A stretch of 64,000 nt of DNA from a virus (IMGVR_UViG_3300031949_000003), one strand, 5' to 3'; counted from the first letter of the stretch, positions 5,683 to 60,746 are shown. Numbers and translations are program-made. The notes: generated by a model not told the origin, from the sequence alone.

Positions 5683-6477
5683 ATGGCGAAGAAGAAAACC
5701 GCGAAGCAGCTCGAGCGCGACATCCAGGCCGTGCTCCGACGTGACAAGCGATCGCATGCCACGAAGAAGTCCTCGGCACAGATCAGCCGCGAGATCACGG
5801 TCGCGCTCCACGCCCCCACGATCACGAACCGCGAACAGATCTCCGATCGCACGTTACGCGCGCTGGGCGATGAACTCGACGAAGCCGCGGTTCGCGCTGT
5901 CGAGGCCGGCGGTGTGGGTGACCTGACGTACCAGGGAGCTGGGGCAACCGGGATCGTGTTCTGTGACGCACGAAAAACCGCGTACAAGGTTGCGCGCCGC
6001 GGTCGCGAAACGTCCGTCTTCGAAGAGGCCGAATGGCTCGTGAAGGCCGGGCAGGTACCCGGGGCACGCGAGCACGTGGCACGCGACACGCGATACGACA
6101 AGAAGCATGACGTGCTCGTGCGCGAGTGCGTACCAGGCCCTGTCGGCACGTCGCGCCAGACTTCCAAGCTGTTCGACCTTCACAAGGGAATCCGAACTGC
6201 GATGACGCCTTATGGTTGGCTGTCACCAGAATTCAAAGAGGACAGCTACGTCATGGCCCGCGGGCGCGGCCCTGTGCTGGTGGATGCTTCGTCAGCACTC
6301 CGAGTCGGCGGCGAGCTGGTCCGCTACGCACAAGATGTTCTCGCCGCACGCCGGCCACAGACCGAGCGTCTGGAAGATATCGCGTTCGCCATTCGCCAGG
6401 AGCGTGGCAGCTCGATCCCAGAGGCGGTAGCAGACAAGTTGCTCGCCAAACTGCGAGCACGCGGCATCGATACCTGA
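5683..6477 (+). CDS. protein-kinase-like fold protein with two QLxREI tags
   Basis: GAGATG loop, AYKV, FEEAE, VLVD; catalytic loop degenerate (EFKEDS). Confidence 0.55.
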   Translation: MAKKKTAKQLERDIQAVLRRDKRSHATKKSSAQISREITVALHAPTITNREQISDRTLRALGDELDEAAVRAVEAGGVGDLTYQGAGATGIVFCDARKTAYKVARRGRETSVFEEAEWLVKAGQVPGAREHVARDTRYDKKHDVLVRECVPGPVGTSRQTSKLFDLHKGIRTAMTPYGWLSPEFKEDSYVMARGRGPVLVDASSALRVGGELVRYAQDVLAARRPQTERLEDIAFAIRQERGSSIPEAVADKLLAKLRARGIDT

Positions 6478-6493
6478 AGCGCCAGCTCAGCGC

Positions 6494-6703
6494 TCAACGC
6501 ATCTTCTGCCAAGGGCCGACGACGATCTCATAGTCGCCCTCGGGAAGCTCGAAGCAGCGCGGATCCTGGTAGCCGCACGCGATGCAGATCGGGTTGAGGG
6601 CCTGGCAGTCACGGCTCGCTCGACATCTCGGACAGGTGAACGTGTTCGTGGACGCTGCGACACCCGGAGCGAAACCGCGGACTACTTGCGGAGACTTTGA
6701 CAT
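6494..6703 (-). CDS. small zinc-ribbon protein
   Basis: CPRC...CIAC; TATAAT 7 nt upstream of ATG. Confidence 0.6.
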   Translation of the reverse strand: MSKSPQVVRGFAPGVAASTNTFTCPRCRASRDCQALNPICIACGYQDPRCFELPEGDYEIVVGPWQKMR

Positions 6704-6710
6704 AGTGTAA

Positions 6711-6740
6711 ATTATACACATCCGTGGGACTGGGTGTCCA
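6711..6740 (-). promoter_or_regulatory. sigma70-type promoter, probably leaderless
   Basis: TGGACA-18-TATAAT on minus strand, ATG 7 nt downstream. Confidence 0.65.
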
Positions 6741-6862
6741 GATACCCGTATCTCGAAGGCGCAGCAGGCGCAGCCGGTGTGCCCGCTCAAGCCCGGGTGT
6801 CCCGTGCCCCAGGCCCGTGCAGAAGCGTACTTGCGCCTTACCTCGGCCGGCACGCCGCGTGT
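6732..6862 (+). promoter_or_regulatory. sigma54-like promoter with two upstream GGGT-N8-ACCC sites
   Basis: GGCACG-CCGC-GTGT at 6849-6862; sites at 6732-6747 and 6795-6810 (one mismatch). Confidence 0.6.
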
Positions 6863-6875
6863 ACTACGTGGGTGC

Positions 6876-7448
6876 ATGGCGAGCATGGCAACCCGGCACG
6901 ACGTCGAGCAACAGATCCTAACCCTCATCGAGACCTCGATCGAGGACACCGTCATCCCGGACGCGATCGCGGCGCACGCCGACAAACGCGCGGGCAAGCC
7001 GGTCACCAAGACCGACGCCGCGCAGCTCGAAGCCCAGGTCGGCGTGCCGGTTCGCATCCGCCGCCAGCACGGCATGACGCACGTCGGGTGGGCAGCCGGC
7101 AAGGGCGGCAACCCCTGGCTCGACGAGCGCTCGGTCCTGCTCGCGCATTCGGACACCGGCGTCCGTTGGCCGAGCGGCGACGAGCTTCGCAAGAAGGAGC
7201 CCGCGTACTTCAGCGCGCGCGACGAGCGCAACCTTGCCCGCAAGCAGCTCCTGCAAGAGCACGCGACCCTGCGCGGAGCGATCGGAAGCGAGATCCCGGA
7301 CCACGCTGACGAGAGCACGGTCTATCGTGCGGCGCAGGCGATCGTCAAGCTTCGTGAAGCACAGGAGGAGTTGCAGAAGCTCGTCGACTACGGCCAGCCG
7401 CTCCACGTCGTGCGCTTCCCCATCGAGAAGCTCGCGAAGGCCGAGTAG
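6876..7448 (+). CDS. hypothetical protein
   Basis: Strong GC3 codon bias; follows putative promoter. Confidence 0.7.
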   Translation: MASMATRHDVEQQILTLIETSIEDTVIPDAIAAHADKRAGKPVTKTDAAQLEAQVGVPVRIRRQHGMTHVGWAAGKGGNPWLDERSVLLAHSDTGVRWPSGDELRKKEPAYFSARDERNLARKQLLQEHATLRGAIGSEIPDHADESTVYRAAQAIVKLREAQEELQKLVDYGQPLHVVRFPIEKLAKAE

Positions 7449-58559: not shown

Positions 58560-58910
58560 TCACGTCGTTCCGCCGCCGCCGCACAGCGCCGGCCACAGCG
58601 GATCCAGGCACCGAACGGATCGCCGAGTAAACAGCCTCAACGCATGAGGCGATCGGCGATCGCGCGCGGCGTAGATCGACAGGTCGACGTCAGCGCCGAG
58701 CTTGCCGGTTCGATCGAGTTGGTTCGCGATGCGATAGATCGCCTCGGCCTCGCGCTCCAAGACCTTCGGGAACGTCTTCACGCGCTTCCGCATGTCGGCC
58801 GCTTCGAGATCGTCGAACAACCCGAACTGATGCGTTACGCGCTGCCAATCGTCATCCGTTGGCGTCGTCTTCGATTTCGGCGATGTCTTCCCAGGCTTCT
58901 TTGTTGCCAC
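58560..58910 (-). CDS. hypothetical protein
   Basis: ORF track; basic N-terminus. Confidence 0.5.
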   Translation of the reverse strand: MATKKPGKTSPKSKTTPTDDDWQRVTHQFGLFDDLEAADMRKRVKTFPKVLEREAEAIYRIANQLDRTGKLGADVDLSIYAARDRRSPHALRLFTRRSVRCLDPLWPALCGGGGTT

Positions 58911-59068
58911 CGACGCCGATCATCGAGCGGTCTGTACAGGAATGCGAATTGCCGTCGGTCGCGGCCTGGAGTACAACCGGGCCCTCCAAACGAGGCCGCG
59001 CCAACCTGTAATCGCGATCGATTGCCTCCGCGATCGCGCGGATTGAAACACCCGAGCATGTCGCACTC

Positions 59069-59788
59069 ATGATAAGCCGCCCGAACGGTCGCTTCGATCG
59101 CCGCCGCCCCGACAAGGGACACCGCATCAACCACCGCATCCGTGCCCAGGAGGTGCGGGTCCTCTACGAGGGCGATCAGCTCGGCGTCATGCCGACGCAC
59201 CAGGCGCTACGCGTCGCTGAGGACAAGGGCTTCGATCTCGTCGAGATCTCGCCGGGCGCGGCTCCGCCGGTGTGCCGGATCATGGACTACGGCAAGTTCA
59301 AGTACGAGGAAGCGAAGAAAAAGCAGCAGCAGCGCAAGAGCCAGACAACCTTCGAGACGAAGGAGATCAAGTTTCGGCCCAAGACCGACGAGCACGACAT
59401 GGACTTCAAGGTGAAGCACATCCGTCGTTTCCTTGAAGAGGGCAACAAGGTCCGGCTCGCCGTCGTGTTTCGCGGACGCGAGATGGCGCATCCGCAGACG
59501 GGCAAGGCCGTCCTCGATCGCGTGGTAGATCGCTGCACGGACATCGCCTCGGTAGAAGTGACGCCGAACCTCGATGGGCGGCGCATGATCATGCTGGTCG
59601 CCCCCAAGCCAGGCGTCGTGCAGAAGGCGATCGCGCTCAAAAAGGCGCAGGCGCAAACGCAGATCGCCGCGCAGATCGCGACACGTGACGCGCGGTTCAC
59701 GGATCCTCAAGACGAAGTGCTCGATGAGGACGCGATCAACGCGGACGTCGACATCGACGAGACCGACGACGACGCGAACAGCGACTGA
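59069..59788 (+). CDS. infC: translation initiation factor IF-3 with acidic C-terminal extension
   Basis: RINHRIRAQEVRV, PPVCRIMDYGKFKYE, KEIKFRP, FRGREMAH. Confidence 0.97.
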   Translation: MISRPNGRFDRRRPDKGHRINHRIRAQEVRVLYEGDQLGVMPTHQALRVAEDKGFDLVEISPGAAPPVCRIMDYGKFKYEEAKKKQQQRKSQTTFETKEIKFRPKTDEHDMDFKVKHIRRFLEEGNKVRLAVVFRGREMAHPQTGKAVLDRVVDRCTDIASVEVTPNLDGRRMIMLVAPKPGVVQKAIALKKAQAQTQIAAQIATRDARFTDPQDEVLDEDAINADVDIDETDDDANSD

Positions 59789-59790
59789 AC

Positions 59791-60204
59791 GTGCAGGTAC
59801 GGCCTGACGAGATGGTCATGATCCGCAACACGAAAGCCGCTCAGAGGGAGCTACTACGTGTGGCGCTCGTGCACCCTCCGTTTCCCATCGTGCTGCGCGT
59901 TCGGGACTTCCGCCGATCGCTGTTCGAGCTGGAAATGCTGATGACGGTGCCGGACACGAACAGCGGGCGCTACATCTGCCAGACGCTCGTGTTCGAGTGT
60001 GCGCTTCCCGTCTCACGACACAAATTCATCCGCTTCGTTGAAACGGCGCTGCGCGAAGCGGTCATGCACGAACTCTACGAGAGCCTTCACGTAGATGGCA
60101 AACGAGTACGTGACCCGCATGAAAGCCGTGAGGCTGGACGCGCGTGGACCGTGGTCGAAGACATGAGATGCTTTACACGCGCGAGAACGCGCTCGCGGGC
60201 GTGA
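59791..60204 (+). CDS. hypothetical protein
   Basis: HELYESLHVDGKRVRDPH C-terminal motif. Confidence 0.6.
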   Translation: MQVRPDEMVMIRNTKAAQRELLRVALVHPPFPIVLRVRDFRRSLFELEMLMTVPDTNSGRYICQTLVFECALPVSRHKFIRFVETALREAVMHELYESLHVDGKRVRDPHESREAGRAWTVVEDMRCFTRARTRSRA

Positions 60205-60218
60205 CGATTGTCGATTCT

Positions 60219-60746
60219 TCACTCCTCGATAATCGCGCCAGCGCGCTCGGCCGCGGCGCGGCCCGCCTTCGTGAACGGGCCGACCGCGACCAGCTCAGGC
60301 GAGACCTCGGATCGGTACGCGTCGAACAGGACCTGCGACAGCCCGCGCCCGCGCGCGTCGGGATCGACCCAGATGTGGTGCACGTATGGTCGGCCGTACT
60401 CGACGGCGTAGGCGAGTCCGGCTAGCGGATCGGCCACGCCTCCGTTGGACAAAACGATCAAGATCCGCCCCGCACGAGCCCCGCCGTAGTTCTTACCCGT
60501 CGTGAAGATCAAGTCCCAAGGTTCGGGCACGCCCACGAGCGAGATCTCGATCTGTTCGCGCCGCGTGATGCGCTCATCGATGAGCGCTTCGTGCACGCGC
60601 TCACGCGTCACGCGCTCCATGCCGCCGTTGCCGCCGTTGCCGCCGTTGCCGTTGCCTCGCGCCAGTGTCTCGTTGATCTCGCGATCGAGCTGTTTGGCCG
60701 GCGTCTTCTTCGCCGGAGCCGGTACCCGCGGCACGCGTTTCTTCAT
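60219..60746 (-). CDS. GNAT-like acetyltransferase with QLDREI tag
   Basis: HIWVDPDARGRGLSQVL acetyl-CoA motif A; KKTPAKQLDREINETL. Confidence 0.65.
   Translation of the reverse strand: MKKRVPRVPAPAKKTPAKQLDREINETLARGNGNGGNGGNGGMERVTRERVHEALIDERITRREQIEISLVGVPEPWDLIFTTGKNYGGARAGRILIVLSNGGVADPLAGLAYAVEYGRPYVHHIWVDPDARGRGLSQVLFDAYRSEVSPELVAVGPFTKAGRAAAERAGAIIEE

Follow-up and report, generated by a model that had tools for sequence, protein, structure and literature searches.

The capsid-targeting sequence (CTS) of phage T4, carried by IPI-III and Alt, is a short conserved peptide on diverse, fast-evolving anti-host proteins that suffices to address foreign proteins to one destination; it lies only at the N-terminus, spans about 10 residues, is cleaved off by the prohead protease, and serves a handful of proteins (PMC3012670, PMC9026906). 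The encapsulation peptides of bacterial microcompartments (BMCs) are short amphipathic helices located N-terminally, C-terminally or between domains and connected by a poorly conserved flexible linker to unrelated cargo; a pattern rather than individual residues is conserved in them, their hydrophobic face is broader than that of the peptide considered here, and they accompany shell genes of the families PF00936 and PF03319 (PMC4594438, PMC11157265, PMC12339742). Here, we analyzed a peptide tag that recurs on otherwise unrelated proteins encoded by 64,000 nucleotides of viral DNA (IMGVR_UViG_3300031949_000003; the whole stretch is referred to as the window), part of an uncultured huge phage-like element from soil whose phage nature is probable. 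The tag had been pointed out in an earlier note, made from the sequence of the window, and by analogy it would work most like the two systems above, although it was found to belong to neither. The reading we favor, with evenly balanced confidence, is that of a label for docking or addressing which one common partner recognizes, whatever the destination may be.

The tag is a self-contained module of about 20 residues that comprises a basic lead-in (KK), a short amphipathic helix and an Arg/Pro/Gly-rich flexible linker; its full consensus, ahead of the linker, reads (h)HATKK[ST]PAQLDREIAEAL[ASG]. The logo of 303 non-identical instances, which is partly circular because these were chosen by profile or pattern, yields K K [ST] P A Q L D R E I A E A L [ASG], with an R/K/P/G-rich stretch behind it. 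With the Gln counted as position 0, conservation reaches 91–100% at K-4, Q0, L1, E4, I5 and L9 (96–100% at E4 and I5, E at +4 being present in 96%), while R at +3 is found in 85% and E7 in 68% of the instances. The motif of internal tags is preceded by (H)H-A-T, H[AS]T standing before 73% of them, which accounts for the half-copies H[AS]TK listed in the earlier note: these are genuine residues of the fuller motif. The same H[AS]T is met again 5–10 residues past the helix in 29% of the tags, against a background of 6.9%, and since a kinase-like carrier family has one or two tandem tags plus decayed second copies, the downstream HAT is read as the start of a degenerate tandem tag. A HATKK..AQ start without the helix is also present in the metagenomic relatives P0196 and P0217. 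In the AlphaFold2 (AF2) model of the kinase-like carrier, computed from a 33-sequence alignment, both tags are helical (tag predicted local distance difference test score, pLDDT, 63–82); [ST]-P-A-Q would act as an N-capping box and D, R and E would form intra-helix salt bridges, so that the helix is probably pre-formed. Co-folding of four copies of a 43-residue tag segment for self-association scored 0.02 (mark 0.42), a result that weighs neither way.

Compared with the T4 CTS, the tag is likewise a short conserved peptide common to diverse fast-evolving proteins, and it superficially shares a K-T start, a Gln and then I-A-E plus Ala, although the spacing of the common residues differs. Unlike the CTS, it also occurs internally and C-terminally and is found on 8–20% of genes, and no T4-like head genes were seen in the sampled loci. 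Membership in the T4-type CTS was rejected, as the tag is not confined to the N-terminus: among 158 tags in the top 150 of 502 matching protein clusters (the 150 carriers referred to below), 85 were N-terminal, 67 internal and 6 C-terminal, which agrees with the three kinds of placement originally reported (in the window, the copies at 7781 and 27605 are C-terminal and that at 12166 is internal). The resemblance to BMC encapsulation peptides consists of a helix that is terminal or inter-domain, a flexible linker, and hydrophobic residues at i, i+4 and i+8 (L1/I5/L9); in contrast to these peptides, the polar residues of the tag are nearly invariant. None of the shell families PF00936 and PF03319 appeared in the Pfam lists of the related loci L006, L007 and L011 and of two 20-kb stretches of the window's contig, all of them genome fractions, and membership in this group was rejected on account of the unseen shell genes and the far stronger conservation of residues.

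The claim that the tag fits no described family was upheld. No significant match covering it was found in Pfam, NCBIfam, PHROGs or the PDB sequences (the sole hit in the tag region was DUF7301, E 1.7, in one carrier), the tag profile hit PDB sequences only at E > 1, and a full-text literature search for the motif returned no paper. The beta-clamp motif QL[SD]LF is similar in being a short motif of the one-partner type on unrelated proteins and in starting with Q-L-D, but the tag has R-E instead of hydrophobic residues at positions 4–5, and the clamp has few clients, which serve in replication or repair and are not ORFans; a clamp-binding motif was therefore rejected, R (85%) and E (96%) occupying the places where hydrophobic residues are needed. 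Helix-extension-helix modules (SAP/HeH/Rho_N) were discarded as no Pfam hit was obtained at E ≤ 5 for ten carriers and the tag has one helix. A Sec/Tat signal or membrane anchor was dismissed given the lack of a hydrophobic core and the absence of transmembrane-like segments (19-residue windows with a mean Kyte-Doolittle hydropathy ≥ 1.6) from all 150 carriers, versus 13 of 128 window genes with such a segment. A leader of ribosomally synthesized and post-translationally modified peptides was set aside because the carriers are 100–350-aa proteins, an FHA-binding phosphothreonine site because Ser is as frequent as Thr, and a Pup-like helix because its spacing differs.

Tag copies in the window were detected by a six-frame regular-expression (regex) search for the core QL[DE]x[ED]I preceded by a Lys patch, and by a hidden Markov model (HMM) of 17 columns built from 26 copies of the window and three related loci. 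This resulted in 11 strong copies on 10 open reading frames (ORFs), with scores of 22.6–33.6 bits (Table 1). The HMM scores are partly circular, as the same copies seeded the model; this does not apply to the shuffled and reversed controls, to the independent pattern scans or to the 502 profile hits. The maximum was 6.3 bits for reversed peptides and 8.5 bits for five residue shuffles, so that the repetition of the tag on unrelated window proteins, as initially claimed, stands far above the control maximum. Of the copies enumerated in the earlier note, 10 proved strong and those at about 18340 and about 54100 (both minus) turned out to be weak or partial (5.7 and 9.9 bits), while the copy starting at 12424 on the minus strand had been overlooked. 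The tract at 33–52.5 kb, described as free of clear copies, is indeed so: no copy ≥ 5 bits was found between 27.7 and 54.1 kb.

Table 1 Tag copies, tag remnants and the kinase-like carrier in the window
Feature	Position	Strand	Evidence
Tag copy 1, N-terminal, kinase-like protein	5689..5739	+	HMM 23.6 bits; AF2 helix residues 7–23
Tag copy 2, tandem, same kinase-like protein, HATKK before	5761..5811	+	HMM 22.6 bits; AF2 helix residues 31–43
Tag copy, C-terminus of small ORF (about 7667–7843, start uncertain)	7781..7831	+	HMM 27.8 bits
Tag copy, N-terminus of 93-aa ORF (8976–9257)	8991..9041	+	HMM 27.2 bits
Internal tag copy, ORF 12037–12492 (start uncertain); HSTKK before, YSTKK after	12166..12216	+	HMM 30.9 bits
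Tag copy, 34-aa tag-only ORF (12332–12436) overlapping 3' end of plus-strand ORF	12374..12424	-	HMM 30.5 bits
Tag copy, N-terminus of 129-aa ORF (14641–15030)	14644..14694	+	HMM 23.9 bits
Tag copy, C-terminus of 146-aa ORF (27245–27685)	27605..27655	+	HMM 30.9 bits
Tag copy, N-terminus of YgjP-like metallopeptidase (54721–55119)	55066..55116	-	HMM 27.5 bits; PF01863 E 1.1e-21
Tag copy, small ORF (57376–57621, start uncertain)	57442..57492	-	HMM 33.6 bits
Tag copy near N-terminus, 175-aa protein (60219–60746), weak GNAT similarity	60660..60710	-	HMM 27.3 bits; GNAT E 8e-4, below cut-off
Decayed tag copy, 27-aa ORF directly upstream of YgjP-like gene	55150..55200	-	HMM 10.3 bits
Truncated tag copy, C-terminus of ORF 54067–54435	54070..54111	-	HMM 9.9 bits
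Degenerate tag-like stretch with usual basic linker; not counted as copy	18291..18341	-	HMM 5.7 bits, within control range
Half-tag carrier (HATK...HATAK at about 19492–19503)	19279..19818	-	BLASTP, regex
Half-tag HHATKKSAAQ without helix, in ORF 15137–16066	15809..15820	-	Regex, ORF context
Kinase-like carrier, 264 aa, two N-terminal tags	5683..6477	+	AF2 mean pLDDT 92, Foldseek

Selection was found to act on the peptide, as conservation does not go beyond it. In the 11 window copies, the first two codon positions had identities of 0.69 and 0.73 and the third had the lowest, 0.52, and among 148 distinct DNA copies the same codon was used in 51% of pairs in same-amino-acid columns, versus 48% expected from the codon usage of the window. 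The synonymous variation noticed at the outset had thus been interpreted correctly, and a stronger conservation of DNA than of protein, set beforehand as a test, did not occur in the 148 DNA copies. A DNA or RNA element was ruled out by the absence of DNA-level conservation, and so was an in-frame mobile repeat of the Rickettsia RPE type, with which the single orientation is also at odds.

Outside the window, the tag is specific to, and confined to, one lineage of giant phage-like elements. The perfect 10-mer QL[DE]REIAEAL was present only four times in 185,579 prokaryote species genomes (one each, 596 Gb), never with a Lys lead-in, which is chance level; the recurrence of the motif in unrelated high-GC genomes, another test named in advance, was not seen in this set. 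In IMG/VR, the same 10-mer pattern retrieved one 10.8-kb contig (L001), where the tag is N-terminal, and the pattern KSPAQLDREI had no match, while 64 loci with exact KSPAQLDREI on contigs of up to 461 kb were obtained from the JGI metagenomes. When 1.84 billion cluster representatives were searched with a profile of 27 tag segments, the 502 proteins mentioned above were recovered at E ≤ 1e-3, and metagenomic contigs with tag-matching clusters reached 502 kb. Related DNA (about 470 kb) contained 169 tags, or 3.6 per 10 kb, a rate biased upward by the choice of most loci for having a tag; the window has 1.7 per 10 kb, with about 8% of its genes tagged, and in L006, L007 and L011, which were fetched via the kinase-like gene, 17–21% of the genes are tagged when this index gene is excluded. 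In the related tagless phage contigs L008–L010 (IMG/VR, with kinase-like homologues), no tag ≥ 9 bits was found in 53 kb. An alignment-based scan of IMG/VR for kinase-like relatives gave three distant, untagged relatives, and a single-protein scan gave none.

The carriers are soluble, fast-evolving, unannotatable accessory proteins. When the tag was masked, the 150 carriers fell into 84 unlinked groups, and when they were cut at the tag, 124 segment families were distinguished among 196 segments, a given domain being found alone after the tag, before the tag, or with different partners; internal tags are flanked on both sides by stretches resembling real domains. When 26 carriers of the window and its relatives were compared all against all by BLASTP, the similarity was confined to the 15–35 residues of the tag, true orthologues excepted, and the portability of the tag across unrelated proteins, as described in the earlier note, was thereby confirmed. 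A Pfam family was recognized in only 5 of the 150 carriers (DUF6496 twice, Sigma70_r4, DUF5661 and SPOR) and the sigma fragment was the only one with an NCBIfam match; none of 10 large carriers matched a PHROG, in contrast to their untagged neighbors, which have many ordinary enzyme and phage families. Comparison of the homologues indicates that domains are swapped at the tag: the first 112 residues of the minus-strand ORF 19279–19818 share 75% identity with P0128, and the homology breaks off right at HATK (19503, minus), the position at which P0128 has a full tag plus a different second domain, and P0135 has the same domain after an N-terminal tag. Such swapping shows how these elements build new proteins.

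Concerning the individual carriers in the window, the one taken for an M48 peptidase is instead YgjP-like (PF01863, E 1e-21), and for the GNAT-like one the similarity is weak, with hits (E 8e-4) below the Pfam cut-offs. The kinase-like assignment is confirmed by the predicted fold, with the kinase domain of a lanthipeptide synthetase and Rio1/Rio2 as the top Foldseek matches (E about 1e-5, TM-score 0.35–0.43) and PRPK ranking lower. Among 147 homologues of this protein, the orthologues retain the tag over > 100 sequences, and in distant homologues, some of them on viral contigs, a hydrophobic, transmembrane-like N-terminus replaces it, which we read as a probable swap between localization devices. 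The invariant residues of the kinase-like carrier include K102, E115, E183, K185, D187 and D201, and judging by them it may be an active kinase; that the conserved KK[ST]P of the tag could be a phosphorylation site is pure speculation. In the metagenomic relatives P0121, P0123 and P0161, a variant tag KKIDREIxAL is N-terminal, SPTSTSTEVR repeats lie in the middle and standard tags are C-terminal, making this family a possible multi-tag scaffold.

The genes with N-terminal tags were additionally searched for upstream signals. Of 101 such genes, 24 have a TAnnnT box (TAGGAT-like) that ends 5–9 nt ahead of the start codon, compared to 8 of 113 untagged window genes and 1.8% of random ATGs, with examples at L006:9995 and L007:12623 as well as in L011 (several), L037 and L038. 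This suggests that leaderless, host-type promoters are enriched on tagged genes. A link of tagged genes to sigma-54 promoters was dropped, as matches to the -24/-12 consensus show no excess in the window (20 vs 23 expected).

In the GenBank phages (50,697 records), no match was obtained by megablast or tblastn for two 24-kb stretches and two proteins of the window, and homologues of the window genes lie on metagenomic contigs of 200–502 kb. The large ORFs of related loci gave PHROG hits to tail fibre, tail protein, virion structural protein, endolysin, RNA ligase and DnaB-like helicase, of which several of the tail-fibre hits may stem from collagen repeats. The stand-alone IF3 of the window (59069–59788, plus) is 80–88% identical to copies on other giant contigs (up to 502 kb), and its nearest named cellular relatives are found in metagenome-assembled genomes (MAGs) of Kofleriaceae (Myxococcota), with about 77% identity over 77–79% of the length; the host is therefore probably a myxobacterium, to judge from this gene. 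One 118-kb contig of the lineage was binned in a 'Gaiellaceae' MAG, which was taken as mis-binning.

Several lines of evidence point to a label that is read. Stereospecific recognition by one partner is indicated by six near-invariant positions, some of them polar, which are kept across hundreds of unrelated proteins and would not be explained by generic amphipathicity or a passive linker. An address or docking label also agrees with the position independence, with the flexible linker, and with carriers that are soluble, evolve fast and resist annotation. In such a mechanism, L1, I5 and L9 would form one hydrophobic stripe that fits a groove on the shared partner, the two lysines would steer the tag toward an acidic rim of this partner, and the carriers would thereby be brought together at one place. 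The most likely single destination is the assembling head, from which the cargo would be injected with the DNA, although we consider even this doubtful; a phage-built compartment or condensate would be the next candidate. Head loading is consistent with the effector-like carriers, with a basic-patch-plus-helix architecture typical of scaffold or coat binding, and with the likeness of I-A-E-A to the T4 CTS. As a tentative possibility, these elements, probably of soil myxobacteria, may sort proteins proteome-wide by means of a helical tag and one receptor into a virion or a phage-built compartment, the tag doubling as a seam for domain shuffling.

Other observations weigh against the docking or address label, and against the head in particular. 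No reader of the tag was found in the genome fractions of the lineage that were covered, and the tags coincide exactly with domain junctions, which a passive linker would fit too. In ~530 kb of sampled loci and walks from the window ends, we saw no gene for a capsid protein, portal, terminase or prohead protease, for which reason the phage nature of the element rests on the tail, virion-structural, endolysin and other PHROG hits. To our knowledge, a tag on 8–20% of genes would imply a variety of cargo well beyond that of any described phage, many tags are internal or C-terminal, and the TAnnnT boxes suggest, as far as timing can be inferred from them, early rather than late expression. If one partner does read the tag, this partner would define a sorting route for roughly a tenth to a fifth of the genes in a lineage of 200–500-kb elements, and the tag would serve as a cheap computational marker of the effector-like dark proteins of this lineage and could be used directly in pull-downs and to load foreign cargo.

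The tag could alternatively be a handle for a cytoplasmic machine, i.e., a short linear motif that binds a hub of the host or the element (RNA polymerase, ribosome, chaperone or AAA+ protease), for instance as a shared degron that would clear early proteins on schedule. The position independence seen in hub-binding motifs, the early expression suggested by host-type -10 boxes before a quarter of the N-tagged genes, the presence of DnaJ and IF3 in the window, and a carrier that is a sigma-70 region 4 fragment would all be in line with this role; nevertheless, we consider it unlikely, given that known hub motifs have a handful of clients instead of 8–20% of a proteome, that the tag helix is too polar for a DnaK-type site, that R and E stand where the clamp motif QL[SD]LF requires hydrophobic residues, and that terminal degrons do not act from internal positions. 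A distinctly unlikely explanation is that of a passive inter-domain linker and recombination seam, kept as a handy junction and read by nothing. The same domains do occur before or after the tag with different partners, the homology between ORF 19279–19818 and P0128 ends precisely at HATK, and a mosaic of fragments with tags on both strands is found at 12.0–12.6 kb, but there is no DNA-level conservation to drive homologous exchange, linkers do not hold six positions, polar ones included, 91–100% identical, and over half of the tags are terminal, and many of the proteins that bear these lack a second domain.

Quite improbable, in our estimation, is a nucleic-acid or nucleoid-binding module whose basic lead-in and Arg-rich linker would tether the carriers to DNA or RNA. 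The KK before the helix and the R/K/P/G-rich stretch after it are suggestive of such binding, and HATKK and KKSP recall the S/T-P-K-K motifs of histone tails; on the other hand, D, E and E are among the most conserved residues of the helix, the net charge of the core is about zero, no SAP, HeH, Rho_N or DNA-binding family was hit at E ≤ 5, and no match was found among the PDB sequences. The T4 prohead protease, gp21, cleaves by the rule (L/I)-x-E followed by a small residue, and I5-A6-E7-A8 fits this rule, so a processing signal was considered as well, that is, a propeptide or spacer cut by a maturation protease after I-A-E or at H-A|T to free the domains of 'polyproteins', to which the H[AS]T found before most internal tags and in excess downstream would be suited. 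This is very improbable, since E7 is much less conserved than E4 and I5, 71% of the tags are not followed by H[AS]T and most cargo would consequently not be releasable, the downstream HAT is better explained by a decayed second tag, and no protease gene was found in the sampled loci. As for chance or low-complexity similarity in a high-GC coding background, A, L, E, R and D are common in high-GC proteomes, but its probability is practically negligible when controls of at most 8.5 bits are set against 22–34 bits for the copies, when the perfect 10-mer in the 596 Gb of species genomes always lacks the KK lead-in, and when the tagless contigs L008–L010 show no comparable hit.

Some tag copies of the window lie in unusual surroundings. 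The region 11959–12496 contains two full tags on opposite strands facing each other (12166, plus, and 12424, minus) in overlapping ORFs, with HSTKK, YSTKK and HSTK remnants at 12157, 12238 and 12592; it looks like a mosaic of broken fusions in which the real ORF is ambiguous. The best-scoring tag of the window is encoded in a frame without a convincing start (57376–57621, minus) that overlaps the 3' end of a collagen-like gene (57585–58313, minus) by 37 nt and could represent a small overlapping gene, a C-terminal extension reached by frameshifting, or a relic. The decayed tag at 55150–55200 (minus), beside the intact tag of the YgjP-like gene, may be left over from a tandem duplication or from an upstream fusion partner that was lost.

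The window as a whole has a G+C content of 64% and is packed with small genes. Besides DnaJ and IF3, it encodes a C5 DNA methylase, a NAD-dependent sugar epimerase, three paralogous PAPS-reductase-like proteins, a radical-SAM protein, a Macro domain, a cpYpsA SLOG domain, DUF488 and collagen-like proteins. The PAPS-reductase-like paralogues (phrog_424) are all on the minus strand (62490–63776, 50384–51742 and 43220–44263), and the latter two are located in the tag-free 33–52.5 kb tract together with the radical-SAM gene (46527–47369) and the epimerase gene (34361–35371); the genes of this tract may form a DNA- or sugar-modification block. The pattern GGGT-N8-ACCC is present at 6732, 48126, 48201 and 52663 (plus), i.e., four times versus 0.4 expected. 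In a related contig, an intein containing a LAGLIDADG homing endonuclease interrupts a DnaB- or KaiC-like ATPase (L036:3179-5236, plus).

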